A stretch of 24,737 nt of DNA from a virus (Duplodnaviria > Heunggongvirae > Uroviricota > Caudoviricetes). Position 1 is the stretch's first letter; each line of letters opens with the position of its first letter. Both the position numbers and the translations under genes were made by a program. The notes beneath the pieces are model-generated. The model saw only the letters and a list, made by a program, of their open reading frames with translations. It ran no database searches and was not told the DNA's origin. Positions 1 through 18,237 of this stretch are shown piece after piece. The DNA is taken from the IMG/VR virus record IMGVR_UViG_2718218399_000013; one strand, given 5' to 3'.

Positions 1-116
1 ATGTCTGCACCTGCATTGCCTGATGTCAGAACAGTATTTTGATTAATTGCCAGGGTTACAATGGCACAAATGCGGCACAGGAGGAAACGTGGTGTATTTA
101 AATATGGGGTAACTAC

Positions 117-142
117 TTGATTTAAATGGTGCGATAATAGGA
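117..142. repeat. att-like direct repeat: degenerate copy of the thrW 3' end (127-142, one base missing) plus the 10-nt flank ttgatttaaa that also abuts intact thrW; putative distal boundary of the P4-like element
   Basis: Plus strand 117-142 ttgatttaaatggtgcgataatagga versus 23284-23310 ttgatttaaatggtgccgataatagga; similarity ends at 143. Confidence 0.5.
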
Positions 143-675
143 ACCAATAATCGCCACCAACACAATGATTTTAATACATAAATTAAAATAGAAGATTTAA
201 ACTACACACACCCCTATACACATTGGTGAAGGCGTTCGCTTTCCGCGCATTCTCAAGGCAGAAAAAACTTTTTTTGGGGGAAAACTGTTCATACTACTCA
301 TTGTGTTTTTTTTCATTAATATTCAAAAAGATATGAAATTAACGATTGATAAGAAGTGAACACTTTACTGTTCACCTTGACTGATTAATAAGTGCATAAA
401 AACCTAATTTTTGAGCACGGAAGGTATTTGTTCCTTACCCCATTTTTTCTCTTTAGTCCAGTACAACAAAAAATGCGCCCAACAGAAAACTGTTTTGAAT
501 TTAAATGCAATCGCTTTGTAGTGATTGTAACGTAAGTTGATTTGATGGGTGCGATTTTGTTTAGCGATAATGGTATGTTGTAAAAATCATTTCGTTGCAA
601 TAAAATTGCATCGCTACATTTTATAGACAATATCAATTAAATTTTAATACTCATTATTAATTTTGAGGCTAACAA

Positions 676-1632
676 GTGACTAGTTATTCAAACTTTTCCA
701 ATCAAATAAAAGAAACCATCAATAATAAATTCGATCATGAAATTCATGATTGGGACATTATAAAAAACTCAATCACAACTTTAATAAATAAAAATATCCA
801 TGGTGCAGGTAGAAATATCGTTGATTTTATAGATTTAGGTAACTGGGATTTTATTTCAAACTTTTCCTTTGATGACTCTACAAGAAGACTTGAATTAGAG
901 TGGCACCCCAATGATAAATTCCATATATATATTGAGTCCGTTGTGTTTGTCGAGTTTAATGACACTATATATGCTTTCTTAAAGGGATACTATCACAATC
1001 AGTTATCTCTAAATAGAATATATAATACAAAATGCTCTTCATGTTCATTTGAAAACTCAGGTTCTTATATGGTAGACGTTTATAGAACGGTTAAAAGAGT
1101 AAATGAGACAATCCAGACCCCAAATATAAATTGCTATACTACATGTATTTTAACAAGGCCCGCAAATGGTCATGTTACATCTACAGGCTTCTCACGAAAC
1201 CTCATGGATGCGATAAATATTTCATTAGCAGAGCACAAAATAGCCTCTTTACATAATGAAGTCATGAGTATTGAGGAATATGATCGTGATTCTTTACAAG
1301 AGAAAGGAAATACTGCCAGGAGATATTTAGAATATATTCTCATGCTTGTTAATATTCGTATAATGCATTTAAACAACGTTCAATACCAAGAGCAAATGCT
1401 AGGTAGTTTAGTTTCTGTTATTGAGGCTCTGGACTATGAACCATTAATGAAAAATGATGTTGAAATTACAAAGGACATCCTTAATGCTTGCAGCCACCAC
1501 GGGGGGGTTAGAATTGAAAAGAAAGATGTAATTTTTTCTTTGGAAGTTATTGAAAACTTAATTAAAGCCATAAAGAAAACCGACATAAATAAATTACAAC
1601 TCGATGGGATGTTTAAATCAATTCAAAAATAA
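676..1632 (+). CDS. hypothetical protein, 318 aa; AT-rich cargo gene between the distal att repeat and the alpha gene
   Basis: Long ORF with GTG start and a gagg RBS-like motif about 7 nt upstream; very AT-rich with Asn/Ile/Lys-rich product, contrasting with the GC-richer alpha gene; followed by a hairpin; no recognisable motif. Confidence 0.55.
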   Translation: MTSYSNFSNQIKETINNKFDHEIHDWDIIKNSITTLINKNIHGAGRNIVDFIDLGNWDFISNFSFDDSTRRLELEWHPNDKFHIYIESVVFVEFNDTIYAFLKGYYHNQLSLNRIYNTKCSSCSFENSGSYMVDVYRTVKRVNETIQTPNINCYTTCILTRPANGHVTSTGFSRNLMDAINISLAEHKIASLHNEVMSIEEYDRDSLQEKGNTARRYLEYILMLVNIRIMHLNNVQYQEQMLGSLVSVIEALDYEPLMKNDVEITKDILNACSHHGGVRIEKKDVIFSLEVIENLIKAIKKTDINKLQLDGMFKSIQK

Positions 1633-1736
1633 ACATCATCTAACAATGAATTAGATGCATTTTCCGCTGACGCCTTAGCATATAACTTTTAAATTTTATC
1701 GATATATATTTTGAGATAATTTCCTGTAGCGGATTT

Positions 1737-1757
1737 AAGACCGGCACAGCCGGTCTT
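1737..1757. terminator. putative bidirectional hairpin between convergent orf318 and alpha
   Basis: Perfect inverted repeat aagaccgg-cacag-ccggtctt in the 130-bp gap between two convergent genes; no strong U-tract. Confidence 0.35.
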
Positions 1758-1764
1758 AGGTCAG

Positions 1765-4098
1765 TTATTTCGCTGCAAACTCATCGCATTTTGGCAACCA
1801 GTCAGCATTGCTTTCCTCTCTTAGGGCCAGATTAGTCTGCATTCCTTGATTGGTCCGTCGTTTCTCATACTGCAGCCCATATTCCTTGAGCATTAACGGT
1901 AGCCCCTTGCCAAACATGGTCAGACTGAGCGTATTTTTATAGCCGTTAGCCTCCATGTAGACCAGATAGGCATGGTAGAGGTAAGTTCGAGGCTGACGTG
2001 GAACAATATTAGCGTTCCCCATAAACATGCCCGTGGTGTCAGGTAGGACCTCAAGGTAGCCGCAAAAATCAAAAGCTGAATCAGCATCACGTTTGATGGT
2101 GAGCGCTTCATCGGAGTTCTGCTGTGACTGAAGCAATGTCCTGGCACTCATTGGGTCGCTGAAACGCTGCATAAGCTGGCGAACAATCACCGCTAGCTCA
2201 CTGGCAATTTTCTCTTTGAGCTGGGTATCGCGTTCCTCCGGGGCTATCTGGTCGGGGAAATGCAGGATCACCCTTCGGCGTGAAACTCCACCACTACGAT
2301 CAGTGAAGCGCATCGGATTATTGTTCACAGCCAGGATGACCGCCGGGATGTGGGTTGAATAGGCGTTCTGATATTTGGGATCAACGGATACCGCATCGCC
2401 GCCAGTGATGGCTTTTAGTCCGGCCCCGTCACCGCTCCACTTTTCCTGGTCGGGAAGTCGAATCAGTGAAAAACCTATTAACGCAGCTCGTTCTCTTGGC
2501 GACTCAAGCATTTCAATGGTTGCCGAGGTCGCGTTATCTTCACCCGCCAGCATGGTTGCTATTTCAGCAAGAATACTCTTTCCACTTCCGCCAGGGCCAG
2601 TGACCTCCAGAAACAGCTGCCAGTCATAACGGTTAGCCAGCACCATAAACAATGCAGCCAGAATAATGTCCCGTTTTTCAGGATTAAAACCTGCGGCACG
2701 ATCCAGCCAGCGCCAGAATGCCGGGGCATGGGTTTCCAGTGACTCACCGTCAACGGGCTGCGTGTAATCCACCTCGCACAGCGTACGTAACCAGTGCTTC
2801 TTATCGTGCGGGCTGAACAATCCTGTCCGGGTATCGAGCACACCGTTGCGAAATCCGATAAGTTGCCGCGCCGGATTCTGCTGTTGCGGAACGATCAGTT
2901 TGAGGGTTTCCACGAGAGACGCAATTTTCGCGGATGAAAAAGGTGCGTCGAGGCGCTGAAACAGCGCAGCGACATCACGGGCAAAATCGGCGTAATAGAT
3001 AACTTTCCAGGCCCCCGCCTCATAGCGTGAAAGGAGCTGCCCGTTCGGGTCTACTGCCAGTGAATTTTTATAGTGATCCACTACCCTCTGCGCTTTTTCG
3101 CTGACGCTCAGCGCGGTAAATTCAGCTTCGCTCATTGTGTCGAAGGGGCTGGCAACAGCTGGTTTTATTACTTCATGAATTGCATGCCGGGTGGCTTCTT
3201 CGCCGTTTTGCGTGAATGCATCGTTCCAGTCACCAAACACAGGCGGGAGCGCCATTGTGCAATTGCAGGCCCCGGTAACAGCTGCGCCCCTTGTTTGCCC
3301 CGCACCGTTGAGATCGCGGTCAGCAGCAATAATTATCTGGTGCGTTGGGTACTCACTGCAGGCAATGCTCGCCAGGGAAAGGAAATTGACGGACGAAAAG
3401 GCCACCATGACAGCATCGCCAGTCAGATAGTTGATAGTAAGTGCGGTGGCATATCCTTCCGCTATCCAGAGCCGTTTGGCTGCTTTGGCAGTACCTTCAA
3501 CCAGGTAAAAGGCATTCTTAACCTGACCGCCTTTAAGGAAGCATTTGCCCCCATTAGCGTTGATTAACTGCAGATTTACCAGCTCTCCATCTGCATACAA
3601 TGGAACGACAAGATCTCCCGCGCGAAATGCCACACCACCGACTTTATGCATAGCGGTTAATTCCCGGCAAGGCAGTGCAGGAAACCCTTTACTCGTCAGA
3701 TAGGCATTGCCAGTGGTCTGGCGGGACTTATCAAACAAACGGGCAGCCAGCACTGCTGCAGCTTTTCTCCCGTCCTCTTTTTCAGGAGAACCAGATTCAA
3801 GCATTCCCTGAGATACTGGCAGCAGGTTTCCGATAATGCCGTTTATTCTGTCTGCCGCTTCACTAATGCCTACATCCAGTACTTTACTTACAAGCGCCAG
3901 GCCATCACCTGCCCCGCACTGGTTACAGAACCACGTTCCCCGCCCTTCCTGGTCATCAAATCGAAAGCGGTCTTTCCCGGCACAGACCGGGCAGGGCTGG
4001 TGCCGATTTTTCAGTACATTTACGCCCAGCGCAGGTAAAATTCTTGACCAGTGACCCCGAGCTGCTTTCTCAGCCTGGCTAACTTTCATTCCTGACAT
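1765..4098 (-). CDS. P4 alpha-type primase-helicase (zinc-binding primase, TOPRIM, D5-like helicase), 777 aa
   Basis: N-terminal CPVCAGKDRFRFDDQEGRGTWFCNQCG zinc motif, Walker A GPGGSGKS, 777 aa from the ATG at 4098 with RBS aaggagg 9 nt upstream (the ORF track's 4155 start adds a 19-aa extension without RBS); satellite-phage gene context. Confidence 0.85.
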   Translation of the reverse strand: MSGMKVSQAEKAARGHWSRILPALGVNVLKNRHQPCPVCAGKDRFRFDDQEGRGTWFCNQCGAGDGLALVSKVLDVGISEAADRINGIIGNLLPVSQGMLESGSPEKEDGRKAAAVLAARLFDKSRQTTGNAYLTSKGFPALPCRELTAMHKVGGVAFRAGDLVVPLYADGELVNLQLINANGGKCFLKGGQVKNAFYLVEGTAKAAKRLWIAEGYATALTINYLTGDAVMVAFSSVNFLSLASIACSEYPTHQIIIAADRDLNGAGQTRGAAVTGACNCTMALPPVFGDWNDAFTQNGEEATRHAIHEVIKPAVASPFDTMSEAEFTALSVSEKAQRVVDHYKNSLAVDPNGQLLSRYEAGAWKVIYYADFARDVAALFQRLDAPFSSAKIASLVETLKLIVPQQQNPARQLIGFRNGVLDTRTGLFSPHDKKHWLRTLCEVDYTQPVDGESLETHAPAFWRWLDRAAGFNPEKRDIILAALFMVLANRYDWQLFLEVTGPGGSGKSILAEIATMLAGEDNATSATIEMLESPRERAALIGFSLIRLPDQEKWSGDGAGLKAITGGDAVSVDPKYQNAYSTHIPAVILAVNNNPMRFTDRSGGVSRRRVILHFPDQIAPEERDTQLKEKIASELAVIVRQLMQRFSDPMSARTLLQSQQNSDEALTIKRDADSAFDFCGYLEVLPDTTGMFMGNANIVPRQPRTYLYHAYLVYMEANGYKNTLSLTMFGKGLPLMLKEYGLQYEKRRTNQGMQTNLALREESNADWLPKCDEFAAK

Positions 4099-4111
4099 TG
4101 TGCGGCCCTCC

Positions 4112-4435
4112 TTAGTGCAGCGCTGGTTTGTTGAGGTGACGGGAACAAAGTTCATCCATGACCGTCATTCCGAGCAGTGAGAGAACCGGACAGGCTTTAA
4201 GCGGCCCCGACTCCATCAGATCCGAAAGCAACGCGCAGGCAATTTCCAGCCCTCTTTGCTGCCCATGCTGGCGCAGATAGAACCCTTCCAGCTCGCGGGC
4301 TATGGCATCTTCAAGTTCAGCGAGCGTCAGGCCGGAATAACGTTCCTGATGATTGCTTAGAGCCAGCCAGGCACAGGCAACGGCACGGCGATACAGAGCG
4401 GCACGAAGTGCCAGAAGAGATTCACAGCATATCAT
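4112..4435 (-). CDS. small protein (107 aa) immediately upstream of alpha; position of P4 left-operon accessory genes (Cnr-like position)
   Basis: ORF translationally coupled to neighbours (1-nt overlap with the upstream ORF, 13-nt gap to alpha containing the alpha RBS); GC-rich like the P4-like core; function not recognisable. Confidence 0.5.
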
Positions 4436-4656
4436 CAGGCCACCTCCGCATTCATCAGGTCGTCATGGCAGCGTTGCACCACTCCATCCAGTTGCTCTGT
4501 CATCAGATAAATGAGGGAAACCAGTTGTTCGCATTGGGCACCTGCTGGCTTTTCATAACAGTCCTGCAGGGCTGCCATGCCAGTTACATACTCACCCACA
4601 TTGCGTAAATGTTTCAGCCTTACAACATCGTCGTAGGAAATCTCAAACTGGTTCAT
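4435..4656 (-). CDS. small protein (73 aa), P4-like left operon
   Basis: ORF with 4-nt start/stop overlap to the upstream ORF and 1-nt overlap to the downstream ORF; acidic small protein. Confidence 0.45.
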
Positions 4657-4847
4657 AGCGTCACCTCCCCGGCAGGCAGCCGTGCAGAAAGGGAGAGTAC
4701 ATAATCTCGGACTAGCAAACGGCGCGCGGAACGCTCATCGCAGGAGACAGTGCGAAGCATACAGATGCGGGGGTGAGTGTCAGCACGGCGGATTGCGGCA
4801 AACACAAAGACATATTGCGGGTGTGACGGGGTGAGGATTGTAGCCAT
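4653..4847 (-). CDS. small protein (64 aa); only the 3' part of the 185-aa track ORF is likely coding
   Basis: ATG at 4847 preceded by GGAGG (4856-4860, 8-nt spacing); the upstream 120 codons of the track ORF translate to low-complexity sequence over a GC-rich repeat region. Confidence 0.4.
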
Positions 4848-5206
4848 GATGGCAGCCTCCAATAAGTAGCGGTTATTGCTACCACCGGAAACGCCAATTT
4901 CACTGGTGGCAGCCCGAACGGGGTTGGCGTAACCGGCCTTATTGGAAACCGGCCAGCCCGAAGGCTGCCCCGCCCGGACTACCATTATCTCGATAGAACC
5001 ATGGTGTAAGCATAAACACCACAGCCCTGAAAATGGTTGTGCCTGAGCTACGACGTAAAAAAAGACGCAAGGGGCGTCAATTGTCGCCAATAAGTTATAC
5101 GGAACGCCAATTCCGGCTGCCGATTTTGCGACAGCGGAAAAACTATACCTGGAAATGACGACAGTAAGCAAGCCAGAATAAAGGTATTTAATGTATGCAG
5201 GTATCA
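4848..5206 (-). ncRNA. candidate structured non-coding leader or immunity-RNA region of the P4-like left operon
   Basis: About 360 nt without a convincing ORF between the AlpA/Vis-like gene and the first small ORF; GC-rich direct repeats cagcccgaa (4910-4918, 4954-4962) and aaccggcc (4931-4938, 4947-4954) plus local hairpins (cagcc-cgaa-ggctg); P4 places its RNA-based immunity determinant at this position. Confidence 0.25.
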
Positions 5207-5467
5207 TCATGCATCACATCCCCGCCCACGGGCGCTGATGCGGTCCGCCATCCATGCGCTGACCTCAGACTGTGCCCAGGCGACATTTTTACCGCCAAGC
5301 GGGATCTGCTTCGGAAACGCATCGCGGCTGATCAGGTCGTAAACGGTCGAACGGGACAACCCGCATAAGTGCATCACCTCAGGCAGGCGTAAAAATCGCT
5401 CATGATGGTTCGATACAGGAAATAATGGCGCAGCAGGAGCTGGCGCAGACACAGAAATATTACGCAT
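5207..5467 (-). CDS. AlpA/Vis-family small DNA-binding regulator (excisionase-like HTH), 86 aa
   Basis: Motif [48 protein letters not shown] typical of the AlpA/Vis family; RBS gaggg upstream of the ATG at 5467; first gene of the leftward operon. Confidence 0.7.
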
Positions 5468-6312
5468 TTATCTACCCTCTTTAATTTCCACAACAGTCCG
5501 GATGAATTTATCCGGGTTCAGGTAGTTCCTTATTATGTGTATATAAACCACCTGCGCACGCATTTTTTATTTAGCGTCACATATTGATTTTATGGAATTT
5601 AAAGCCCGATTAAACCATATAAAATGACATAATAAATACCATGCCTGCGGACTATAAATACAGGAGCATTAATAGGAACTACCATTCACCCAGGGTTTAC
5701 TATCCTATGGGTCATTGCACCTGATAGTGCTAACCCCACCGCCAATACAGCAAGGCAGTACAACTTCTACACGAGGCCTTGCATTGCAGGCCCCAATTTC
5801 CGGGCATATTTTTGAATCGCATCCAACTTATAAACATTGGGCCTGCATAAAAACCTTGATATTAAATAACATCACCTTAAATCGTAAAATATATCCGAAT
5901 GAATCCATAAAGAACCGGACAGATCTAGTTTTATAAAAATCAGTATGAAATGCAACACCATGGCCAGAGGCGAAAATGTTATTCCCCGGCAAAAACATGC
6001 AGTCTATTTATGTGCCTGTTGAATACTCCTGAATAAGGGTGAATAGTGGTGAGGAGCAAAAAACAAATAGCTACGAGGAATAAAAAAACCACCCATTATG
6101 AAAAAATACCATAAATAATTTTATTCCCATGTGAACAGTTATGAACAGTCGATGAATACTGCCATGCCAACCCTTCACCTTATAACCTTCTGTATTACCT
6201 ATTTTTTTTACCTAAGTGAATAGTAGTGAATAGTTAAGGTAAGTCTGAAACAGCCTTAGTTAAACGAGGCCTTTTCTGGCTAGCCAAAAGAGGTCCGGGG
6301 CGGTTCAGTCTT

Positions 6313-6330
6313 TGTCTTGTCGCTCGCACA
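6313..6330 (+). promoter_or_regulatory. TGT-N12-ACA dyad, putative Ogr/Delta-type activator site of the late promoter upstream of the sid-like gene
   Basis: TGTcttgtcgctcgcACA lies about 70-90 bp upstream of the ATG at 6401, matching the P2/P4 late-promoter activator consensus recalled from the literature. Confidence 0.4.
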
Positions 6331-6400
6331 ATGGCGTTCAATGGCAGCTTTGTATGCATCACAGCACAATTGACACCACGACAAACCACTAGGTGCTGAC

Positions 6401-7153
6401 ATGACAATCCCAGAACAGAACAATAACCCGATCGTTGAAATTTCTATCCCTGTTTCGACGCAACAGGCGCTTGAGAAAGTGAATGCCACCAAATCTGCAT
6501 GGCTTGAAGCACGTCGTCAGCAAAAAGCGGCAGCGGATAATATTGCGACAATCCGCCAGCGCCGCGCTGAAATGGAAGCCACGACGAACGCCCTGAATGA
6601 GGAGTGGCGCACGCTATTTCGTGAAAGTCAGGGCGTAGTCTCAAAGGAAATGAAAAAACTGCGCACGGAAATTGCGCTGGGACGAGAAACGCTTGAGGAT
6701 TTTGATGAGCTGCTGGCGGCTCAGGAAAGCGAAAATGCACTTTTGCCGCAGGAGGCTGCGGAATTAGCCGGAAAGTATATCCACGCGCACGACACCCTTG
6801 TGGGTATTCGCGCAAAACAAATCTGGGAAGATTTTATGCAGTCGCATGGAAAAGCACTAATCCAGACACTAAGCCTGCTCAAATCAACAATGGGCAGGGA
6901 AGCCAGCGCAGTTGTCGGTGTGGTGCATTCAGTTAATGACCCGGACACACTGCTGAAAGATTTTATTCATAAACATATCACCAGACCGGCTCTGACTAAC
7001 GATGCGATGCCCGAACAGGACCCCGTGTTTAAACTGGCGGGAGTTGCCCCGGATTATGCGGCCCGTCTGGATTTCAGTAATAAACTCTCTCCAGCAGCTA
7101 TGCATAAAATGAAGGTTCGTCAGGAACGTGCTGAGAAGGAGAAAGCAGTATGA
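6401..7153 (+). CDS. first gene of the satellite late operon, 250 aa; Sid-like (capsid size determination) by position and size
   Basis: ORF with ATG start downstream of the TGT-N12-ACA dyad; charged, helix-rich composition; stop overlaps the next gene start (ATGA); assignment positional only. Confidence 0.55.
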   Translation: MTIPEQNNNPIVEISIPVSTQQALEKVNATKSAWLEARRQQKAAADNIATIRQRRAEMEATTNALNEEWRTLFRESQGVVSKEMKKLRTEIALGRETLEDFDELLAAQESENALLPQEAAELAGKYIHAHDTLVGIRAKQIWEDFMQSHGKALIQTLSLLKSTMGREASAVVGVVHSVNDPDTLLKDFIHKHITRPALTNDAMPEQDPVFKLAGVAPDYAARLDFSNKLSPAAMHKMKVRQERAEKEKAV

Positions 7154-7701
7154 TGGCCCGAGTCACTCCAGACCAAGCGCTTATCAGTTTTAGAAATGCC
7201 CGTATTCTGTGGGCTGGACATAGTGAGAGCCGAAAAGCCGTTGAACAACAGATAGAATCACTCCTCACTGCCATGGAAAAACCAGCAGATTATGCTCGAC
7301 AGCTCGAATTACAGCGGGAACATCTGGATGTGCTGAAATGGCAAATTAACTGTGCTGCGCGCGAATGCATTTACTCGCAGCATCAACTGATGGAGGCCTG
7401 CACAGAAGACGCTCTCAGCAATTTTATGCAGGCGAATGGAGCAGCCCTGACATCTGCACTGGCTCCGTTCCTGAAGGGGCGCGGAGGGGTTGACGTTGCG
7501 TCCCGTATATTACGCAATGCTCTGGTTCGCCAGCTGGCAATAACACCGCCTGAAATTGCCGGGGATTATCGTATGATTCTGGATGAATCCGGTGTGATGC
7601 CTGACCCCATGATGGTTCGTGATTGCCAGAGCTCTTACACCCCTGCACAACAACTGCGCTTTCAGCAACGTCTGGATTACATTAACGGCATGCAGGAGTA
7701 A
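7150..7701 (+). CDS. Psu-like protein, 183 aa
   Basis: Translationally coupled to the upstream gene; size and segments such as KWQINCAARECIYSQHQ and FMQANGAALTSALAPFLKG resemble my recollection of P4 Psu; not verified by alignment. Confidence 0.5.
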   Translation: MMARVTPDQALISFRNARILWAGHSESRKAVEQQIESLLTAMEKPADYARQLELQREHLDVLKWQINCAARECIYSQHQLMEACTEDALSNFMQANGAALTSALAPFLKGRGGVDVASRILRNALVRQLAITPPEIAGDYRMILDESGVMPDPMMVRDCQSSYTPAQQLRFQQRLDYINGMQE

Positions 7702-7706
7702 TATTA

Positions 7707-7979
7707 ATGGCACTTAAATGTCCCGAATGCGGTACGACGGCACACGCCAGAACCTCCGCCTATGAAGCACCATCGGTTAAACGCTCATGGTATCAGTGCC
7801 AGAATCTTGAATGTTCCTACACATTTACCGCACTGGAAAGTGTGGATACGATAATCATGAAGCCCCGGCGCAATGAACAGGAATCAGAGAAAGCACAAAT
7901 GCCGGAAAAACAACAGCAAACTCTCAATCGCTATGGCTCCGCGTCAAAGCTGTCAAGCCGTCAGCAAATTCCTGTCTGA
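7707..7979 (+). CDS. Ogr/Delta-family zinc-finger late transcriptional activator, 90 aa
   Basis: N-terminal CPECGTTAHARTS ... YQCQNLECSYTF matches the Ogr/Delta C-x2-C ... C-x4-C zinc finger; RBS aggag upstream of the ATG. Confidence 0.8.
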   Translation: MALKCPECGTTAHARTSAYEAPSVKRSWYQCQNLECSYTFTALESVDTIIMKPRRNEQESEKAQMPEKQQQTLNRYGSASKLSSRQQIPV

Positions 7980-7999
7980 TTAGCAAAAAAAGCCCACGT

Positions 8000-8026
8000 A
8001 ATCCCGGTCCAGTACTGGGATTTTTT
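8000..8026 (+). terminator. rho-independent terminator after the late operon
   Basis: aatccc-ggtccagtact-gggatt hairpin followed by TTTTTT directly after the delta stop codon. Confidence 0.5.
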
Positions 8027-8175
8027 ACGCCTTTTCCCTGGCTGGCCTGAGAGCGCATGAGTGCATGTCTATAGCGCATGAAAACGCATGATTCTCATGC
8101 ACCATTTTTGACGCGAAAGCCCTTGTGTGGTGGCTTCTGAGACGATTTGCGGAATGCATGAAAACCAGTCTGTTA

Positions 8176-8215
8176 AGCGAAGCGAGCAGGCGTGGGGGGC
8201 TGCGCGCGCTAAGGG
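8176..8215. other. possible cos-like GC-rich segment of the satellite
   Basis: gcgaagcgagcaggcgtggggggctgcgcgcgc loosely resembles the P2/P4 cohesive-end region as I recall it and sits between the late operon and the cargo/int genes, where P4 has cos; weak. Confidence 0.25.
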
Positions 8216-8388
8216 GTTAGATTATAAAATATCAAACGCCGGTGAGATCCATTATTGTGGAACCACCCGAAGGAAGTGTAGAGGCGAAAGTACCCAAAAT
8301 AATTTTGCAAATTATTTAGAAATGAACTGAGCGCTCGAAACGAAATATAATTTCGAGCACCCCAATTAGCAGTTATATTTTTAATGTA

Positions 8389-8955
8389 TTAAACAGGATA
8401 AAAACCAGAGCTTCCATTCTTATTTAAGTTATGGATTTTATTTGCATCATTAATTTTTATTTGGAACGTCGGACCTTTATTCTCAAGAATTACAATCTGG
8501 AAATTATAGTCCCTTTTGATTAATGCGTGATAAAATGAATCACTGAGACTGACGCTATTAACATCCGATAGAGAACCCCCTCTATCTTTATCAAAGTGCG
8601 TCACTAATGGACTATCAAGCACAACAAATCCAATGAATGGATTCCCTTTTCTTGATAAAAATTCCGCAAAGCAAATGGTAAATATAGCATGCATTACTGC
8701 ACGGGTACCTTTACCAAACATTCCTCGGCGTTTCCCATTGATATTAAAGTCATATGTATCTTCGTCAAATCGCACTTTGTTATCTTTAGAATTTTCAAAA
8801 TTTATATCATTCAAAAAGTCTTGCATCGCTATTTCTATATCATACAAATCAGCTACTGTTAAGGAGTCAAAGTCCTCGGCGGAGTATTTAAGTTCGTCAA
8901 CATCATCTTCTTTATCTTGTAATGAAGATAGAATGCTATGTTTTGTGTGATCCAT
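8389..8955 (-). CDS. C-terminal ABC-ATPase head fragment (Walker B / D-loop region), 188 aa; third piece of an SMC/Rad50-like ATPase
   Basis: FGKGTRAVMHAIF (degenerate signature-like) about 20 aa before GFVVLDSPL (Walker-B-like); start ATG overlaps the upstream stop as TAATG; AT-rich. Confidence 0.5.
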   Translation of the reverse strand: MDHTKHSILSSLQDKEDDVDELKYSAEDFDSLTVADLYDIEIAMQDFLNDINFENSKDNKVRFDEDTYDFNINGKRRGMFGKGTRAVMHAIFTICFAEFLSRKGNPFIGFVVLDSPLVTHFDKDRGGSLSDVNSVSLSDSFYHALIKRDYNFQIVILENKGPTFQIKINDANKIHNLNKNGSSGFYPV

Positions 8956-9545
8956 TAAAAGATTGTCTTTATATTCATAAAGTGATTCAAGAGATGAATG
9001 TATTGTTTTATATTTTTATCTTCTAACGTCTTAAAATCACTTTTTTCTGATTGATAAATTTCATTAACATCATTTTTTCTTAACATAATTAATTCATGTT
9101 CGCGAACATTAGATCCGATTGATTCAATTAATCCTTTCAGCTGGCTTTTGATTTTCAATTTTTCTGCATTACACGACAAAAAACAATCATCATATGATAT
9201 TTCATTTTCTTTTTTTTGCGGTGTATTACAGAACTCACAATAAATATCTGCAAAATTATTTAAATAGAAATTCGCCTGTGATACAACATCTATTCTTTGT
9301 AGATCTATAAAGTATTGGTCTTTAAGAAGACTAAATCTTTCAATGAGTAATGATAAGTATTTTTCCCTGTCACTGATTGAATATAATTCATCACTTAACT
9401 CTTTTAATAATTGCTTCTTATCATCAAGTGCATCAACAATACCTTTCAATATATCTTTCGATGATTCAATATCTTGCTCTACTTTCTCAAGTTCTCTTGA
9501 AACAATGACTTGATCATATTCAGGATAAATTAATTGCGCTTTCAA
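8955..9545 (-). CDS. coiled-coil middle segment of an SMC/Rad50-like ATPase with a possible zinc-hook motif, 196 aa; no ATG start, in frame with the upstream ORF across a single TAA
   Basis: Heptad-rich charged sequence; Cys cluster YCEFCNTPQKK...DCFLSCN; track start is TTG, first internal Met is near the C-terminus; upstream ORF is in the same frame, separated only by TAA at 9576-9578. Confidence 0.45.
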   Translation of the reverse strand: MKAQLIYPEYDQVIVSRELEKVEQDIESSKDILKGIVDALDDKKQLLKELSDELYSISDREKYLSLLIERFSLLKDQYFIDLQRIDVVSQANFYLNNFADIYCEFCNTPQKKENEISYDDCFLSCNAEKLKIKSQLKGLIESIGSNVREHELIMLRKNDVNEIYQSEKSDFKTLEDKNIKQYIHLLNHFMNIKTIF

Positions 9546-9575
9546 TTCCTCATAAATATTTGCAATTTGATTTTT

Positions 9576-10208
9576 TTAAAAATATCTTGCTTTTTTATTT
9601 GGTTTTTCTGCTAAGGAGTTAGTATCATCTCTCTGAGTTAAAAGGAATTTAAATTCAGACTTTCTTTTTGTCTCCTCGCTAGGAATATCAGAAAGAATTA
9701 ACGACTTCTCAGTTAACACTCTTAATTCATCAATACAAAAAAATTCAAAAACATTATTAAGATTAAATTTATGAAGAGTATTACTTAAGTTTGTTCTTAC
9801 TTTAGCCTCTTTGAAATTCAACCTACCATAAAAGTATGATGAAAAACTCTTTTTAGACGAAGCACTTTTGGAAAAAACCATCAACAGATTAGCTTCACTA
9901 ACATTTTCAATGCTCGAATCATATAATCTGTAATGGGCGCTATCCTGAAGAGACCTCTCAATTGTCATTACCCTACCTTGAAAATTAAATTCCAGATAGG
10001 CTAAATCATAACCTTGAGCATGATCGATATCTTTATTTTTTAGTTTTTCACTCCCTAATAAATATCGAATCAAATAATATATGTATGTTTTTCCAGAGTC
10101 AGAACCACCATATAAAATAGTCAATTTAGAACCAAATTCAATTATAGCATCTAATTTATTGAATCCGGTTACCTTTATTTTTCTGAACGTAAAAAAATTG
10201 TCATTCAT
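9576..10208 (-). CDS. N-terminal ABC-ATPase head (Walker A) of an SMC/RecF/Rad50-like protein, about 210 aa before an in-frame TAA
   Basis: FTFRKIKVTGFNKLDAIIEFGSKLTILYGGSDSGKTYIYYLI is a typical ABC/SMC N-terminal P-loop; candidate ATG starts at 10208 or 10226 (the track uses TTG at 10235); ends at TAA 9576-9578 with the next ORF in frame. Confidence 0.6.
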   Translation of the reverse strand: MNDNFFTFRKIKVTGFNKLDAIIEFGSKLTILYGGSDSGKTYIYYLIRYLLGSEKLKNKDIDHAQGYDLAYLEFNFQGRVMTIERSLQDSAHYRLYDSSIENVSEANLLMVFSKSASSKKSFSSYFYGRLNFKEAKVRTNLSNTLHKFNLNNVFEFFCIDELRVLTEKSLILSDIPSEETKRKSEFKFLLTQRDDTNSLAEKPNKKARYF

Positions 10209-10659
10209 AATTAAATTCCATATCATATTTGCCAATTTTATTTTTTATAATTGATTGCAACTGCTCATCAGGAATATCACTATATAACTTAACCACCAAA
10301 TTTATATTATGCTCCATCTGCGCAACATATTCATTATGTAGAGAATTTGTAAATGCATATGTTTTTTCAGAAGCTTTATATACAAAACCACGATGTGTAT
10401 AAATTTTTGAGGCTAGTTCATAGCCTTGCAACAAAGCCAATGATTCTAAAACAATCTCTCGTTTTAGGGCTAACTGAGCATCTCTACGGGGTATTGGAGG
10501 ATGAAGACTAATCTCTTCAGGTAAAAAATCCTTAAGATTTACTAAAATAAAATCAAAACAAATAAGCCGTTCAAGGCTTAATGAAGAAGGATAAATAGCG
10601 ACGAGCACTTTCGCCATTCGACATGCCACTTCTAAACTTGAATTATAAATTCTAACCAT
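10201..10659 (-). CDS. hypothetical small protein, 152 aa from the ATG at 10659; candidate small subunit of the cargo system
   Basis: ATG overlaps the upstream stop (TAATG); its stop lies 5 nt after the downstream ATG at 10208; AT-rich; no recognisable motif. Confidence 0.5.
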   Translation of the reverse strand: MVRIYNSSLEVACRMAKVLVAIYPSSLSLERLICFDFILVNLKDFLPEEISLHPPIPRRDAQLALKREIVLESLALLQGYELASKIYTHRGFVYKASEKTYAFTNSLHNEYVAQMEHNINLVVKLYSDIPDEQLQSIIKNKIGKYDMEFNYE

Positions 10660-11276
10660 TATCTCACCGTCCAAATTACTTCACCATCATTAACCAAATG
10701 ATGGCATATTCCTTTTTTATCATTTGCTTCACATATTTTTGATAGTACTGAATGTGCAATTGGTGTCAGAACAGCCTGCTTCAAGACTGCATTACACCTA
10801 ATAAATGCATAATTATGGTCTTCATAAAAGACGGGTTCAATTGAAGATGAAATGTAACATTTCAATGCTTTGAATACATCATCTTTAAATACTTCGCGGA
10901 CAAAAACCTCAAGCGAAGATGCAAAATAAAAATCATTTCTACTATTATTAAAGTGTCGTCTGTATGGATCATCAAGCTCTAAGAAAGAACTATAAGTTTT
11001 ATTTCCATGCTCTGAATAGGCTTGAAGCAGTGCATTAACATATACAGACTCTTTTTTTGAATTGTATGTTGGAATTTCATTTGGAGGGATTCTCACGACA
11101 TACAGCTCGTTAAAGTACTTAAAATAAAGGTGTGTATTTGCAATATCATTTAAAATCAATGATAAGGGTAGAGAGTAAAAAATACTAAAATCAAAATCCT
11201 CAATATATTTTTTTATTTCATCATCTAATGGAATATCAATCTTTTTAGTTATTTTTTTGAAATTGCTGAATCCCAT
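10659..11276 (-). CDS. hypothetical protein, 205 aa; possibly the C-terminal domain of the upstream Mrr-like nuclease ORF
   Basis: ATG lies 28 nt inside the upstream ORF with no clear RBS; one extra A in the A7 run at the junction would fuse the two ORFs in frame. Confidence 0.45.
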   Translation of the reverse strand: MGFSNFKKITKKIDIPLDDEIKKYIEDFDFSIFYSLPLSLILNDIANTHLYFKYFNELYVVRIPPNEIPTYNSKKESVYVNALLQAYSEHGNKTYSSFLELDDPYRRHFNNSRNDFYFASSLEVFVREVFKDDVFKALKCYISSSIEPVFYEDHNYAFIRCNAVLKQAVLTPIAHSVLSKICEANDKKGICHHLVNDGEVIWTVR

Positions 11277-11665
11277 GAATCAAGGACTGCTTTTTTAAGC
11301 TCGTTTTTATTTTTCAATAAATTAGAAAATGTAGTAGATAAATCATAGGGTGCCACAAAAAAGTACTTCTGAGGGATGGGATAATCACCATTCAGAGTAA
11401 AATAGATAAGTTTTCCAAACTCAACTACAACATCAGAGAACCCTAAACTTTTTTTGTACAGTTTGCATTGATAATTATCCCAAGAATAACCTTCTACGTT
11501 AGGATCCGATTTATATCCAACAACGTCTCTACCTTTATCTCCAGCTCCTCCCAAACGTTCGCTCCACGGGTAATCATCTGATTTACAGACAATAAGCCAA
11601 TCATGGACAAATACCTCCCATTGTTCATCATCCCATGTCAATATTTCCGAAAGTGGTTGAGACAC
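11249..11665 (-). CDS. Mrr-like PD-(D/E)xK restriction-endonuclease-fold protein, 138 aa; first gene of the cargo operon
   Basis: GGAGDKGRDVVGY ... YQCKLYKK matches the Mrr catalytic-domain pattern (G-x-G-D-x-G-x-D ... Q-x-K); GTG start with aaggag RBS embedded in the 3' end of int (int stop 3 nt upstream). Confidence 0.6.
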   Translation of the reverse strand: MSQPLSEILTWDDEQWEVFVHDWLIVCKSDDYPWSERLGGAGDKGRDVVGYKSDPNVEGYSWDNYQCKLYKKSLGFSDVVVEFGKLIYFTLNGDYPIPQKYFFVAPYDLSTTFSNLLKNKNELKKAVLDSWDSAISKK

Positions 11666-11668
11666 AAA

Positions 11669-12850
11669 TTAACTCCTTTTTAGTCTTTCAAATATCAAAT
11701 TACTGTACCAGTCCATCATAGACTTCCTTCCACTAAAATATTGAGCATGGTTATAAGTCCCCCTAATAGAATTTTTATCTACATGAGCCAACTGGATTTC
11801 AATCCAAGCACTCTCAAAACCTTGCTCATGCAGGATTGTAGAAAGGGTATGACGAAAACCATGTCCAGTGACTTTTCCTCCATACCCAATACGCTTAATG
11901 GCTTGATTTATACTCGCTTCGCTCATTGGCCTATTCGGATCGTTCCGCCCTGGAAAAACATAACGATAGTTCCCTGTCATGATCTTGAGTTCATTGAGTA
12001 AATCTACCGCTTGAGATGATAAGGGCACAAGATGTGGCCTACGCATTTTCATCCTTTCAGCAGGAATTTCCCAAATAGCGTTATCCAGATCAAATTCTTG
12101 CCATAATGCCGCGCGTAATTCGATGGTTCTCACACCCGTAATCATCAGTAATTTCGTGGCTATCTGGACAAGCTTACTCCCGGAGTAACCCTCTAAGGCA
12201 CGTAGAAAATCAGGTATCTCATCAGCTTTTAGGAATGGGAAATGATTGGATTGGTGTACTTCGAGAGCGCTGGAGAGATCAGCCGCAGGATTGTACTCCG
12301 CCCTACCCGTTGCAATTGCGTAGCGAAACACTTCGGAGCAACGCTGCCGCACTTTGCGCATTTTCTCCAACGCACCACGTTTCTCAATTTTACGCAGAAC
12401 GTTCAGCAGCTCTAGCGGTTTAATCTCTCCCACAGGCCTTGTTCCGACATAAGGAAAAATGTCGTTCTTAAACGCTTCCATGATGTCTGATGCATATCCC
12501 GCCGACCATTTAGCAGATTTAAGTTGATGCCACTCTCTGGCTATCTTTTCGAAGGCGTTCTCTGACTCTGTTTGCATAGCTAGCTTTTGCTCTTTTCGAA
12601 CCTCACTAGGGTTCTTTCCTTCTGCCACAAGTTTTCGAGCTTCATCACGACGGGAACGAGCATCGGCAAGGGTGATCGTTGGGTAAACACCAAGCGAGAT
12701 CATTTTGGGTTTGCCGGCATAGCGATAGCGGAACCGCCAACTCTTGCTTCCATTAGGTTCTATAAGTAATGACAACCCTAGCCCATCTCCAAATGTATAG
12801 GCTTTAGCTTCAGGCTTAGCGCGGCGAATCTGCATATCGTTTAAAGGCAT
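11669..12850 (-). CDS. P4-family tyrosine integrase, 393 aa
   Basis: N-terminus MPLNDMQIRRAKPEAKAYTFGDGLGLSLLIEPNGSKSWRFRY typical of P4/CP4-type integrases; C-terminal GHGFRHT ... Y catalytic region; adjacent to a partial thrW copy; the track's 12901 start adds 17 Cys-rich residues. Confidence 0.85.
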   Translation of the reverse strand: MPLNDMQIRRAKPEAKAYTFGDGLGLSLLIEPNGSKSWRFRYRYAGKPKMISLGVYPTITLADARSRRDEARKLVAEGKNPSEVRKEQKLAMQTESENAFEKIAREWHQLKSAKWSAGYASDIMEAFKNDIFPYVGTRPVGEIKPLELLNVLRKIEKRGALEKMRKVRQRCSEVFRYAIATGRAEYNPAADLSSALEVHQSNHFPFLKADEIPDFLRALEGYSGSKLVQIATKLLMITGVRTIELRAALWQEFDLDNAIWEIPAERMKMRRPHLVPLSSQAVDLLNELKIMTGNYRYVFPGRNDPNRPMSEASINQAIKRIGYGGKVTGHGFRHTLSTILHEQGFESAWIEIQLAHVDKNSIRGTYNHAQYFSGRKSMMDWYSNLIFERLKRS

Positions 12851-13012
12851 GTGTATAGGAATCCAGACCGAACAGGAACATATACACAATCCTATACACA
12901 TTCAGTACCGGATTCTACTGGATGGTTACGGACTACTATGGACTTAAAAGAATAAAAAATGTTATAAATCAGAGATTTTATGGACTAATACGGACGTTTG
13001 AGGAAGTTGAGA

Positions 13013-13058
13013 TGGTGCCGATAATAGGAGTCGAACCTACGACCTTCGCATTACGAAT
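13013..13058 (-). repeat. direct repeat: 46-nt copy of the thrW 3' end (att core) between the two elements
   Basis: 13013-13058 is identical to 23294-23339 (tggtgccgataataggagtcgaacctacgaccttcgcattacgaat); the 5' half of the tRNA is absent. Confidence 0.85.
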
Positions 13059-13405
13059 TATAAGAATCCGCTTCTAATTCAAAGCATTACCCCATCAACA
13101 CTGCGCTCACACGTCCCACCACATCAAAACATGTAAAGCCTTGCAAGCCATTGCGAGGCCTTATGTGTCTCAGTTTTGTCCCACCTTGTATTACGACTTG
13201 CATAGCCAATGAAGATAAACGTGACGACAAACGGCGCAGCAGTCTTCTTTTCTTTCACGACTTCTCCAGCATGCATACCTTTCTGCCATGACTGAAGTGA
13301 ATGCCTGTTATGAGCAAGGATTGGCCCAGATGAATCGCCCTGGACTGTTGCGATCGTGAAGCCATAGACTGGGCCGCAAGCACGGGAGGTTACGATAAAG
13401 CGACA

Positions 13406-16845: not shown

Positions 16846-17254
16846 GCGGCAAAACGGGATGTGGGGACAGGGGAAAATCAGATACCGGACATGGCTCTTT
16901 GCCATGTATGGATGGATGAAATTACCCAACGGGAAAATCCTGCAATATGTCTGGTGCGGTTTCCCGCATTATCGACGCCGTGAATTCATTCGATCTATCC
17001 CAGGCGACTGCGCGAATTATTCTGGAGGCAGTACCTTTAGGCCGGGTAGGCGAGGTGCGGGACACGCAATTAACTTTCATGATGCATCGCGAATCACCAG
17101 GACACGATTAATTACAGTTGTGGGTGTGGTGGAATTTTTTCAGTCAGGGAATATGCATTATTTTGTAGGCAAATAATGACCTGTTTTTGATGAAAATGGG
17201 CTGGCTACAGGCGCATATGGTGTTTATATATGCTAATCTGAGTATAGGCTGTCG

Positions 17255-17708
17255 ATGAAAATTATATGCGTAGTATGCCGCCTGCATGGTATTGACCCTG
17301 GCGAAAACATTCCGGGAAGAGTTGCAGTATTTACAGGTAAGGGATGGAGCCATGAAGAAGACCATCGCAATGAGACTGTTTACTCAATCGAAAATGGCGC
17401 AGCTGTTACAGTGGATTATATCGGTGCCATCAAAGACGGTTATGTCACGATTTCACCGTTAACGCCATACGATAAATGGGATGGTGAGAAATGGGTGACA
17501 GACACTGAGGCACAACACAGTGCCGCAGTAGACGCGGCAGAAGCACAGCGCCAATCACTGATTGATGCAGCAATGGCTTCCATTAGTCTGATTCAGCTGA
17601 GTTACAGGCCGGACGGAAACTGACTCAGGCAGAAACAACCCGACTTAACGCCGTGCTGGATTACATTGACGCGGTGACGCAACATACCACCGCGCCGATT
17701 CATCTGGC
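17255..17708 (+). pseudogene. tail fibre assembly protein (Tfa-family), frameshifted twice near the 3' end
   Basis: GYVTISPLTPYDKWDGEKWVTDTEAQHSAAVDAAEAQRQSLIDAAMASISLIQL, then LTQAETTRLNAVLDYIDAVT and IWPELPEA-stop in two other frames (about 17600-17708). Confidence 0.65.
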
Positions 17709-18237
17709 CTGAACTGCCGGAGGCGTAGGCCATTCAATATCTGGCGCACCGGAAGTATCGACCAGCTCCAGTGCGTCCATTTCCGATTATATCGTCATTC
17801 GTCACCTTCAGGACCATCCCTTACCGCATTGCTACTGTTCATGTATTCGTTGGCCTGGTTAATTAGTAGCTGTCTTTCTGATTCAGTAATTTCAATAAGC
17901 TCTTCATGCGTGGTAGATATCTGCCACGCAGCAGCCATCATTCGCAATACGGATTTCCGCGGCACTGTAGCCAGCCATTTTCATCAAAACAGTTTCATTA
18001 TTTAGCCCTCACCAGAAAGTTAAATGCAATATTTCGCGGTCTGACTGCAACAAAATTCACACCATCACCCACAGACTGTGAATTAATCGTGAATCCTGGC
18101 TGATTTCCGGCGATGCCATCATGAAAGTTAATTGCGTGTCCCGCACCTTCGCCTATATCCGCAACTGAGAAAGTTGTAGCGCCTGCCAGCTAATAATGCG
18201 ACACGTCTGCACTCGCCGTCATCCAGATACGAATGAA

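Follow-up and report, generated by a model that had tools for sequence, protein, structure and literature searches.

The 24,737-nucleotide stretch of viral DNA recorded as IMGVR_UViG_2718218399_000013 (the window, by which the whole of the analysed stretch is meant) raises the question of whether the element that fills its first half is a P4-like satellite prophage which a helper phage could still mobilise, or a relic fixed in its host chromosome. The original prediction, made from the letters alone, placed a P4-like satellite at 143-13012. This placement is borne out by the annotation of E. coli O157:H7 Sakai, in which 143-13029 carries the label "prophage Sp2, P4-like phage", an end that differs from the predicted one only by the addition of one 17-nt repeat, and by the alignment of the encoded proteins with those of P4. 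Over positions 1-13100, the window matches E. coli O157:H7 genomes, Sakai and EDL933 among them, at 100% identity. The analysis described here indicates that Sp2 is very probably a P4-family phage satellite of the O55:H7/O157:H7 lineage, whose own P4-type integrase inserted it at the 3′ end of thrW before the lambdoid prophage Sp1 entered the same gene. Its mobilisation by a P2-like helper, which the prediction also put forward, may occur and is treated below as a hypothesis. Sp2 has been annotated since the publication of the Sakai genome and its mobility was examined in 2009, so the element is not new; the details added here, which are incremental, are the distinction between its 17-nt and 46-nt repeats, the order of insertion relative to Sp1, the assignment of its cargo to Lamassu and the decay of that cargo, the cis elements, a variant cos and the HEPN-like fold of an accessory gene, orf318.

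The boundaries of Sp2 can be established by comparing the occupied site with genomes in which one or both of the neighbouring prophages are missing. The Sakai annotation assigns the stretch that follows Sp2, as far as thrW, to "prophage Sp1, lambda-like phage", with yagP to the left and thrW-proA to the right, and ARAGORN finds a single tRNA gene in the window, thrW (Thr-CGT), at 23294-23369 on the minus strand. The following features mark the ends of Sp2.

127-142, no strand: distal att repeat, TGGTG-CGATAATAGGA, 16 nt equal to the 17-nt 3′ end of thrW minus one C, joining the host flank to the P arm of Sp2
143-417, no strand: P arm of attP, with an arm-type integrase repeat at 203-224 (TACACACACCCCTATACACATT) and crr-like alpha iterons at 284-375
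12851-13012, no strand: P′ arm of attP, with arm-type repeats at 12851-12861 (inverted) and 12881-12902
13013-13058, minus strand: partial thrW copy, 46 nt that match the 3′ part of the intact gene without a difference
13013-13029, minus strand: proximal repeat of Sp2, the first 17 nt of the 46-nt copy

An artificial empty site, in which the yagP flank and window positions 1-126 were fused directly to thrW-proA, was searched for in 5426 complete E. coli genomes, and 948 of them match the artificial junction in one piece at about 99% identity. It follows that 127-23293 is all inserted DNA, that the left junction is exact and that the left repeat is not a chance match. A second artificial junction, in which the int end of Sp2 was fused to the whole of thrW and proA, is matched at 99.8-100% identity by O55:H7 strain DEC5A and by O157 strains 2571, 493/89 and F6321, in all of which Sp2 abuts an intact thrW and Sp1 is missing; the order of the locus in DEC5A is yagP-Sp2-thrW-proA. 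These genomes show that Sp2 is a separate element which arrived first, and that Sp1 later entered the regenerated thrW. Similarity that continued past the repeats would have spoken against the proposed ends, and none was seen in the empty-site genomes or in those that carry Sp2 alone at thrW.

Both of the thrW-derived repeats that had been proposed as the ends of the element, 46 nt at 13013-13058 and 16 nt at 127-142, are present, but the length of the first is not a property of Sp2. The 46-nt copy is exactly the att core of SfI, SfII, SfV, SfX and P22 as printed in PMC3636060, and window positions 13012-13100 match the attP of SfII, SfV and SfIV; because of this identity and the match of the adjoining attP, the 46-nt length is the signature of Sp1. 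The repeat that belongs to Sp2 is 17 nt long (16 at the distal end), as the Sakai annotation implies. The 42 nt that adjoin the partial thrW copy match the attP of Sf/P22-type phages. Sp1 itself, whose integrase lies in the region 22305-23293, is a lambdoid remnant with an integrase of the SfI/P22 family, and the integrase gene beside thrW is a pseudogene in the Sakai annotation.

The distal repeat had been described as a degenerate copy, and it does lack one C; this is, however, not decay specific to O157, since sister satellites carry the same 16-mer. It occurs in four contexts, namely O157, O55:H7, the satellite of an O169:H41 strain (with Gabija-like cargo) and the 50EVAW element (with DRT3 cargo), and its copies outside the window were located at about 8687-8702 of locus L051 (the O169:H41 sister), 12564-12579 of locus L005 and 1244-1259 of locus L047, while the distal copy of CP4-6 in K-12 is the full 17-mer. 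The idea that the 16-nt repeat is a decayed site which blocks excision was rejected on these grounds, since O55:H7 and two sister satellites that differ in cargo carry this 16-mer as well; the missing C suggests either a difference between attP and attB typical of the integrase family or an old relic site held in common. A third thrW-like stretch at about 526-555 was also dismissed as a chance match, its local alignment score of about 24 (counted by hand) falling within the range of 19-26 obtained from shuffled sequences.

Arm-type repeats (CCTATACACATT) lie just within both ends of Sp2, those at 203-224 and 12881-12902 forming a pair, and up to about 417 the P arm shares homology with the left end of the satellite in O169:H41. 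The attP junction predicted from these ends reads ...GAGGAAGTTGAGA-TGGTGC(C)GATAATAGGA-ACCAATAATCG...

Within these boundaries, the core genes were identified by protein comparisons against P4 (NC_001609; locus L002), with whose assignments Pfam and PHROGs agree, and are as follows.

1765-4098, minus strand: alpha primase-helicase, 777 aa; 73% identity to P4 alpha over 771 aa; Pfam Zn_Ribbon_Prim, Toprim_3, D5_N, DUF5906 and Pox_D5
4112-4435, minus strand: ORF106 homologue (DUF5375), ORF106 being the cnr copy-number gene of P4; 71% identity to P4 ORF106; Pfam DUF5375 E = 1.7e-49
4435-4656, minus strand: 73-aa ORF at the position of P4 orf151/epsilon; phrog_10110 (function unknown)
4653-5210, minus strand: "Ash/Icd-like" ORF of the immunity region; Pfam Phage_ASH E = 4.8e-30; overlain by the cI/C4 RNA
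5207-5467, minus strand: Vis/AlpA excisionase-regulator, 86 aa; 63% identity to P4 ORF88/Vis; Pfam Phage_AlpA
6401-7153, plus strand: Sid-like capsid-size protein, 250 aa; 23% identity to P4 Sid end to end, E = 5e-12; phrog_6165 E = 5e-96
7150-7701, plus strand: Psu capsid protein, 183 aa; Pfam Psu E = 4.8e-42; 31% identity to P4 Psu
7707-7979, plus strand: Delta/Ogr-type late-gene activator with a single zinc-finger domain, 90 aa; Pfam Ogr_Delta E = 1e-16; aligns to each half of the two-domain P4 Delta
11669-12850, minus strand: P4-family tyrosine integrase, 393 aa, uninterrupted; Pfam Arm-DNA-bind_3, Phage_int_M and Phage_integrase; 38% identity to P4 Int over 405 aa

The order orf318, alpha, small ORFs (three, at 4112-5210 on the minus strand), Vis, control region, sid, psu, delta, cargo and int agrees with the P4-mirroring arrangement that had been read from the window. 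The core ORFs align over their full length to P4 or to sister satellites, and no disruption was seen in these alignments, while the cargo genes at the psu-int hotspot are broken by frameshifts and a stop codon; the claim of an intact core accompanied by disrupted cargo therefore holds. The product of 6401-7153, which the Sakai annotation calls a capsid size determining protein, is a Sid homologue with a predicted role in setting capsid size. All seven of the markers by which SatelliteFinder defines a P4-like satellite (PMC10085698) are present in Sp2: integrase, Psu, Delta, Sid, AlpA, Ash and alpha. In that definition the Ash family serves as the "epsilon" marker, and in Sp2 it is represented by the ORF over the cI RNA region at 4653-5210, which is not the P4 epsilon gene. 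The 73-aa ORF at 4435-4656 gave no alignment to P4 epsilon or orf151; a similar small ORF occupies its position in sister satellites, and it may do the work of epsilon against the repressor of another helper.

The control functions of Sp2 can be recognised at the RNA and DNA level by the following features.

4902-4989, minus-strand region: C4/cI antisense RNA; Rfam C4, 84 bits
5058-5135: isrK-type leader, just upstream of the C4/cI RNA and holding the seqA-like complement; Rfam isrK, 71.9 bits
4938-4945: seqB-like octamer CCAAUAAG in the RNA loop, complementing 5087-5094 (seqA-like) and 4859-4866 (seqC-like)
5468-6400, no strand: divergent control region, with ori-like iterons at 6039-6234 and a TGT-N12-ACA dyad at 6313-6330

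The C4/cI RNA folds with an energy of -50.8 kcal/mol (z = -4.9). The octamer occurs five times in the window compared to an expected count of 0.95, and three of the five copies fall within 236 nt of the immunity region. Together with its flanking complements, the RNA reproduces the seqA/seqB/seqC layout which in P4 underlies RNA-mediated premature termination of the left operon, the termination being putative in Sp2, and the match to the isrK "sRNA family" appears to be the leader of this P4-type immunity transcript. The motif [GA]TGAA[CT]A[GC]T, a variant of the alpha-binding repeat of P4, is found ten times in the window, with six copies at 6039-6234, the position of ori, and three at 284-375, the position of crr; these are putative alpha sites identified as motif matches, and the clustering belongs to the variant motif, the exact P4 type-1 iteron TGTTCACC being present once in the window. 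The dyad lies 71-88 nt upstream of sid and is of the type bound by Ogr/Delta activators, an assignment that is suggestive by its position alone, because about six such dyads are expected by chance in the window. Just upstream of the dyad, a 15-nt stretch, GTCCGGGGCGGTTCA at 6293-6307, is present in O157 and absent from O55:H7 DEC5A.

The putative packaging signal is represented by a single feature.

8060-8215, plus strand: cos block (about 155 nt), downstream of delta, aligning with the cos junction of P4

The predicted 19-nt cohesive end of Sp2 is GGCGTGGGGGGCTGCGCGC at 8189-8207, with AAGCGAGCA directly before it. The block is kept in about 29 IMG/VR satellite loci, and homology among them ends a few bases past the GC-rich core, where diverse cargo starts. 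In Sp2 and its sisters the predicted cohesive end has the form GGCG[G/T]G[C/G]GGGGC..., and 4 nt are inserted before the nick. The register of the cos is fixed by Peduoviridae phages of Klebsiella and E. coli, in which an identical junction, AAGCGGGCA|GGCG, lies just upstream of the portal genes. When scanned with a 57-nt consensus, phage sequences gave short matches only, which fell on the cos of these Peduoviridae and close to the genome ends of Burkholderia phages, and no matching cohesive end was among them. Relative to P2 and P4, the cos of the satellite subfamily is set apart by both the 4-nt insertion and the different predicted cohesive end.

The cargo at the psu-int hotspot, which has been described as a defence hotspot of P4-like satellites (Rousset et al. 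2022, PMC9122126), provides a measure against which the preservation of the core can be judged. It consists of a decayed operon.

8389-11665, minus strand: decayed Lamassu (ABC-3C) operon in the psu-int hotspot; PADLOC LmuA, LmuB and LmuC; Pfam MC2, CTD6, AAA_23 and DUF3732
11249-11665 and 10659-11276, minus strand: lmuA in two pieces, which tile one PADLOC LmuA profile
10201-10674, minus strand: lmuC, intact; PADLOC LmuC
9576-10235, 8955-9545 and 8389-8955, minus strand: lmuB in three pieces, which tile one PADLOC LmuB profile

The Lamassu frames are interrupted by frameshifts and a stop codon, the ATPase being a pseudogene in the Sakai annotation, and the Lamassu cargo of Sp2 is inactivated. 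The lesions can be ordered by comparing lineages: the split of lmuA and the second split of lmuB (near 8955) are common to O157 and O55:H7, whereas only O157 has the TTA-to-TAA stop at 9576-9578, and DEC5A has an internal stop in lmuC instead. Between O157 and O55:H7, Sp2 differs by 17 substitutions and 2 indels, of which eight changes fall in the 3277-nt Lamassu remnant compared to three in 6459 nt of core coding sequence (Fisher p = 0.009). No disruption of the core is seen in either O157 or O55:H7, while the Lamassu remnant has gained a new stop in each lineage. A 2026 NAR study found pseudogenes similar to defence genes to be rare in P4-like satellites, at less than 1% of pseudogenes (PMC13586616), and the decay of Lamassu in Sp2 is an exception to this pattern. 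Since that study portrays defence genes as being swapped rather than pseudogenised, Sp2 offers a clean natural counter-example, in which a Lamassu system has decayed stepwise while the core has stayed open. The defence system of O157:H7 strain FRIK944 tested in PMC9122126 was considered as evidence on Sp2 and set aside, because it comes from another satellite, one whose cos is of the canonical P2 type and whose cargo is a cytidine deaminase.

A second cargo gene lies outside the hotspot.

418-1764, plus strand: low-GC insertion (about 31% GC, 1.35 kb) carrying orf318; absent from the O169:H41 sister
676-1632, plus strand: orf318, intact accessory gene with a HEPN-like C-terminal domain

The C-terminal domain of orf318 has the four-helix arrangement of the HEPN fold, although searches of Pfam, PADLOC and PHROGs gave no family assignment and a Foldseek search against the PDB gave nothing significant. 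Its homologues form 36 clusters, nearly all of 313-321 aa, from which it follows that the Sp2 copy is intact; their invariant residues make up the motifs NxCSHHGGxRIxK and EKGNTARRY, and the Rx4-6H catalytic motif of HEPN proteins is not conserved among them. The homologues are carried by integrative or conjugative elements, where their neighbours are ArdC, an orphan methyltransferase and a type I restriction system, or directly follow an integrase at thrW. An uncharacterised HEPN-fold gene that recurs near restriction and anti-restriction genes is a reasonable candidate for defence assays. Four of the 17 substitutions that separate Sp2 in O157 and O55:H7 cluster in a 92-nt stretch of orf318, and the DEC5A copy carries D50N and D58N (window positions 823 and 847) at invariant or nearly invariant positions of the family, where O157 keeps the consensus Asp.

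The question of mobility can now be addressed. In the proposed mechanism, each step of which is drawn by homology, infection by a compatible P2-like phage would lead Vis and Int to excise Sp2, alpha would replicate the excised form, Delta would turn on the late genes of the helper, Sid would shrink the helper capsid, and the helper terminase would package Sp2 from cos. The excision and replication functions are judged to have slightly better than even prospects of still working, while the further step, in which a helper found in nature would package and transfer Sp2, is possible but somewhat doubtful. The chief competing explanation, to which we attach considerable weight while holding it short of probable, is that Sp2 is a fixed relic that can no longer be mobilised, a vertically inherited island of O55:H7/O157:H7 whose ORFs are intact through lack of time for decay.

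P4-type prophages respond to a helper phage rather than to the SOS response, and are not expected to react to mitomycin C. The mobility of all Sakai prophages was studied by Asadulghani et al. (2009), who used attP PCR to detect circular forms with and without mitomycin C (PMC2669165), and Sp2 was negative for circularisation, replication and packaging under both conditions, no helper being supplied (Table 2 of that paper). The same study scores the antirepressor of Sp2 as absent and its repressor, integration, excision and replication functions as conserved, and reports that the resident P2-like prophage, Sp13, is without most of its morphogenesis genes, so that the genome holds no functional helper.

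The negative result is one of several that weigh against a mobilisable Sp2, most of which also speak for a relic. Complete copies of Sp2 are present at about 100% identity in 304 genomes, those inspected being O157 or O55:H7 and all at thrW, and the next best match to Sp2 has 35% coverage at 81% identity; from this confinement to a single lineage and a single locus it follows that there is no sign of recent horizontal spread. No counterpart of P4 epsilon, the derepressor of the helper prophage, was found, as no Sp2 ORF at that position aligns with it. At the cos, position 8185 shows a G-to-A change that is private to O157 (O55:H7 has G) and lies in an otherwise invariant AAGCGGGC, 4 nt before the predicted nick; the predicted cohesive end differs from the 19-mer of P2 and P4; and the search for a phage whose cohesive end matches brought up none, a comparison of 7980-8240 with the phage collection in distant mode giving no match and a pattern scan of IMG/VR for a helper-type cos variant returning only another satellite. 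The pseudogenisation of the cargo implies relaxed selection on this part of Sp2, and all three of the core changes between O157 and O55:H7 are non-synonymous, because of which ongoing purifying selection on the core is not supported.

Three considerations weigh against the relic explanation. Because no helper was supplied and P4-type prophages are induced by a helper, the PCR with mitomycin C is no test of competence, and the negative result in Sakai shows quiescence rather than incapacity. The nine core genes, 6.4 kb in all, are undisrupted in both O55:H7 and O157, while over the same divergence the 3.3-kb Lamassu remnant gained a stop in each. The imperfect distal repeat, which might be taken as a sign of decay, is also found in sister satellites of unrelated lineages.

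A broader proposal can be made from the cos and the missing epsilon, namely that Sp2 and its sisters constitute a distinct P4-like subfamily with a cos of its own, a conserved 73-aa ORF in place of epsilon and a helper other than P2, and that Sp2 is unusual within it in having a decayed defence system beside an intact hijacking core, as well as a new stand-alone HEPN-like defence or toxin gene, orf318, between alpha and crr. This proposal is tentative and, taken as a whole, rather unlikely. The variant cos and the absence of epsilon imply a helper that was not among the phages and satellites searched here.

Two further explanations concern what the region is rather than whether it moves. It is very improbable that it is a generic tRNA island of the SpLE kind, which owes nothing but its integrase type to P4, or a PICI-type satellite. 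Int, AlpA and primase are also PICI-like core markers (PMC10085698), and non-phage islands often carry integrases of the P4 type. The region nevertheless has, in P4 order, Sid, Psu and Delta, the C4/cI RNA, a cos of the P2/P4 type and an alpha with 73% identity to that of P4, and the complete set of P4 markers already refutes such a reading. Almost no credence can be given to the idea that 143-13012 and the next 10 kb make up one composite element in which the internal 46-nt copy is no true boundary: Sp2 and Sp1 are adjacent and have the repeat at 13013-13058 in common, but the genomes with Sp2 and no Sp1 (DEC5A and several O157 strains) refute it, 13012-13100 matches an Sf/P22-type attP, and Sakai annotates two prophages.

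The window is essentially identical to Sakai except in one stretch of Sp1, where 17047-17956 is inverted relative to Sakai and corresponds to the Pin-invertible tail-fibre segment, beside pinE, and where the surrounding 1.5 kb (16895-18370) shows dozens of small deletions and substitutions. These differences have the look of assembly noise, the orientation of the segment being heterogeneous. The name CP-933I, which may denote the EDL933 copy of Sp2, was not retrieved by a literature search and is not relied on here.

Among known systems, the same element as that in the window is the Sp2 of Sakai studied by Asadulghani et al. (2009, PMC2669165), which is 100% identical and has the same coordinates. 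The sister P4-like satellites of E. coli (PMC9122126; PMC13586616) have the same backbone and the same cos-adjacent psu-int hotspot as Sp2, and differ in that their cargo at the hotspot is intact (Gabija-like, Hachimoji-like or DRT3), whereas the Lamassu system of Sp2 is pseudogenised. The closest in its site is the O169:H41 sister, which also lies at thrW, with an int-thrW junction that is 96% identical, a distal repeat of the same 16 nt and a P arm homologous to that of Sp2, but is without the orf318 insertion; another sister, locus L006, has 81% identity to Sp2 over 1681-8111. The prophages of the SfI/SfII/SfV/P22 type use the same tRNA gene, thrW, but are unrelated lambdoid phages with a different integrase, and are kin of Sp1 and not of Sp2.

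P4 itself (NC_001609) has the same modules as Sp2 in the same prophage order of int, cargo hotspot, cos, late operon, ori, vis, cI RNA, small ORFs, alpha and crr, and resembles it in the C4/cI RNA immunity with flanking complements, in the homologous cos junction and in iterons related to TGTTCACC. The two differ in the order of the late operon, which is sid-psu-delta in Sp2 and sid-delta-psu in P4; in Delta, which is a single 90-aa Ogr-type domain in Sp2 and a two-domain protein of 166 aa in P4; and in epsilon and orf151, both of which are replaced in Sp2 by the unrelated 73-aa ORF. P4 integrates at leuX, whereas the site of Sp2 is thrW. The predicted cohesive end of Sp2 is GGCGTGGGGGGCTGCGCGC and that of P4 is GGCGAGGCGGGGAAAGCAC, and where P4 carries gop-beta-cII as its cargo, Sp2 carries a broken Lamassu system together with an extra cargo gene between alpha and crr.

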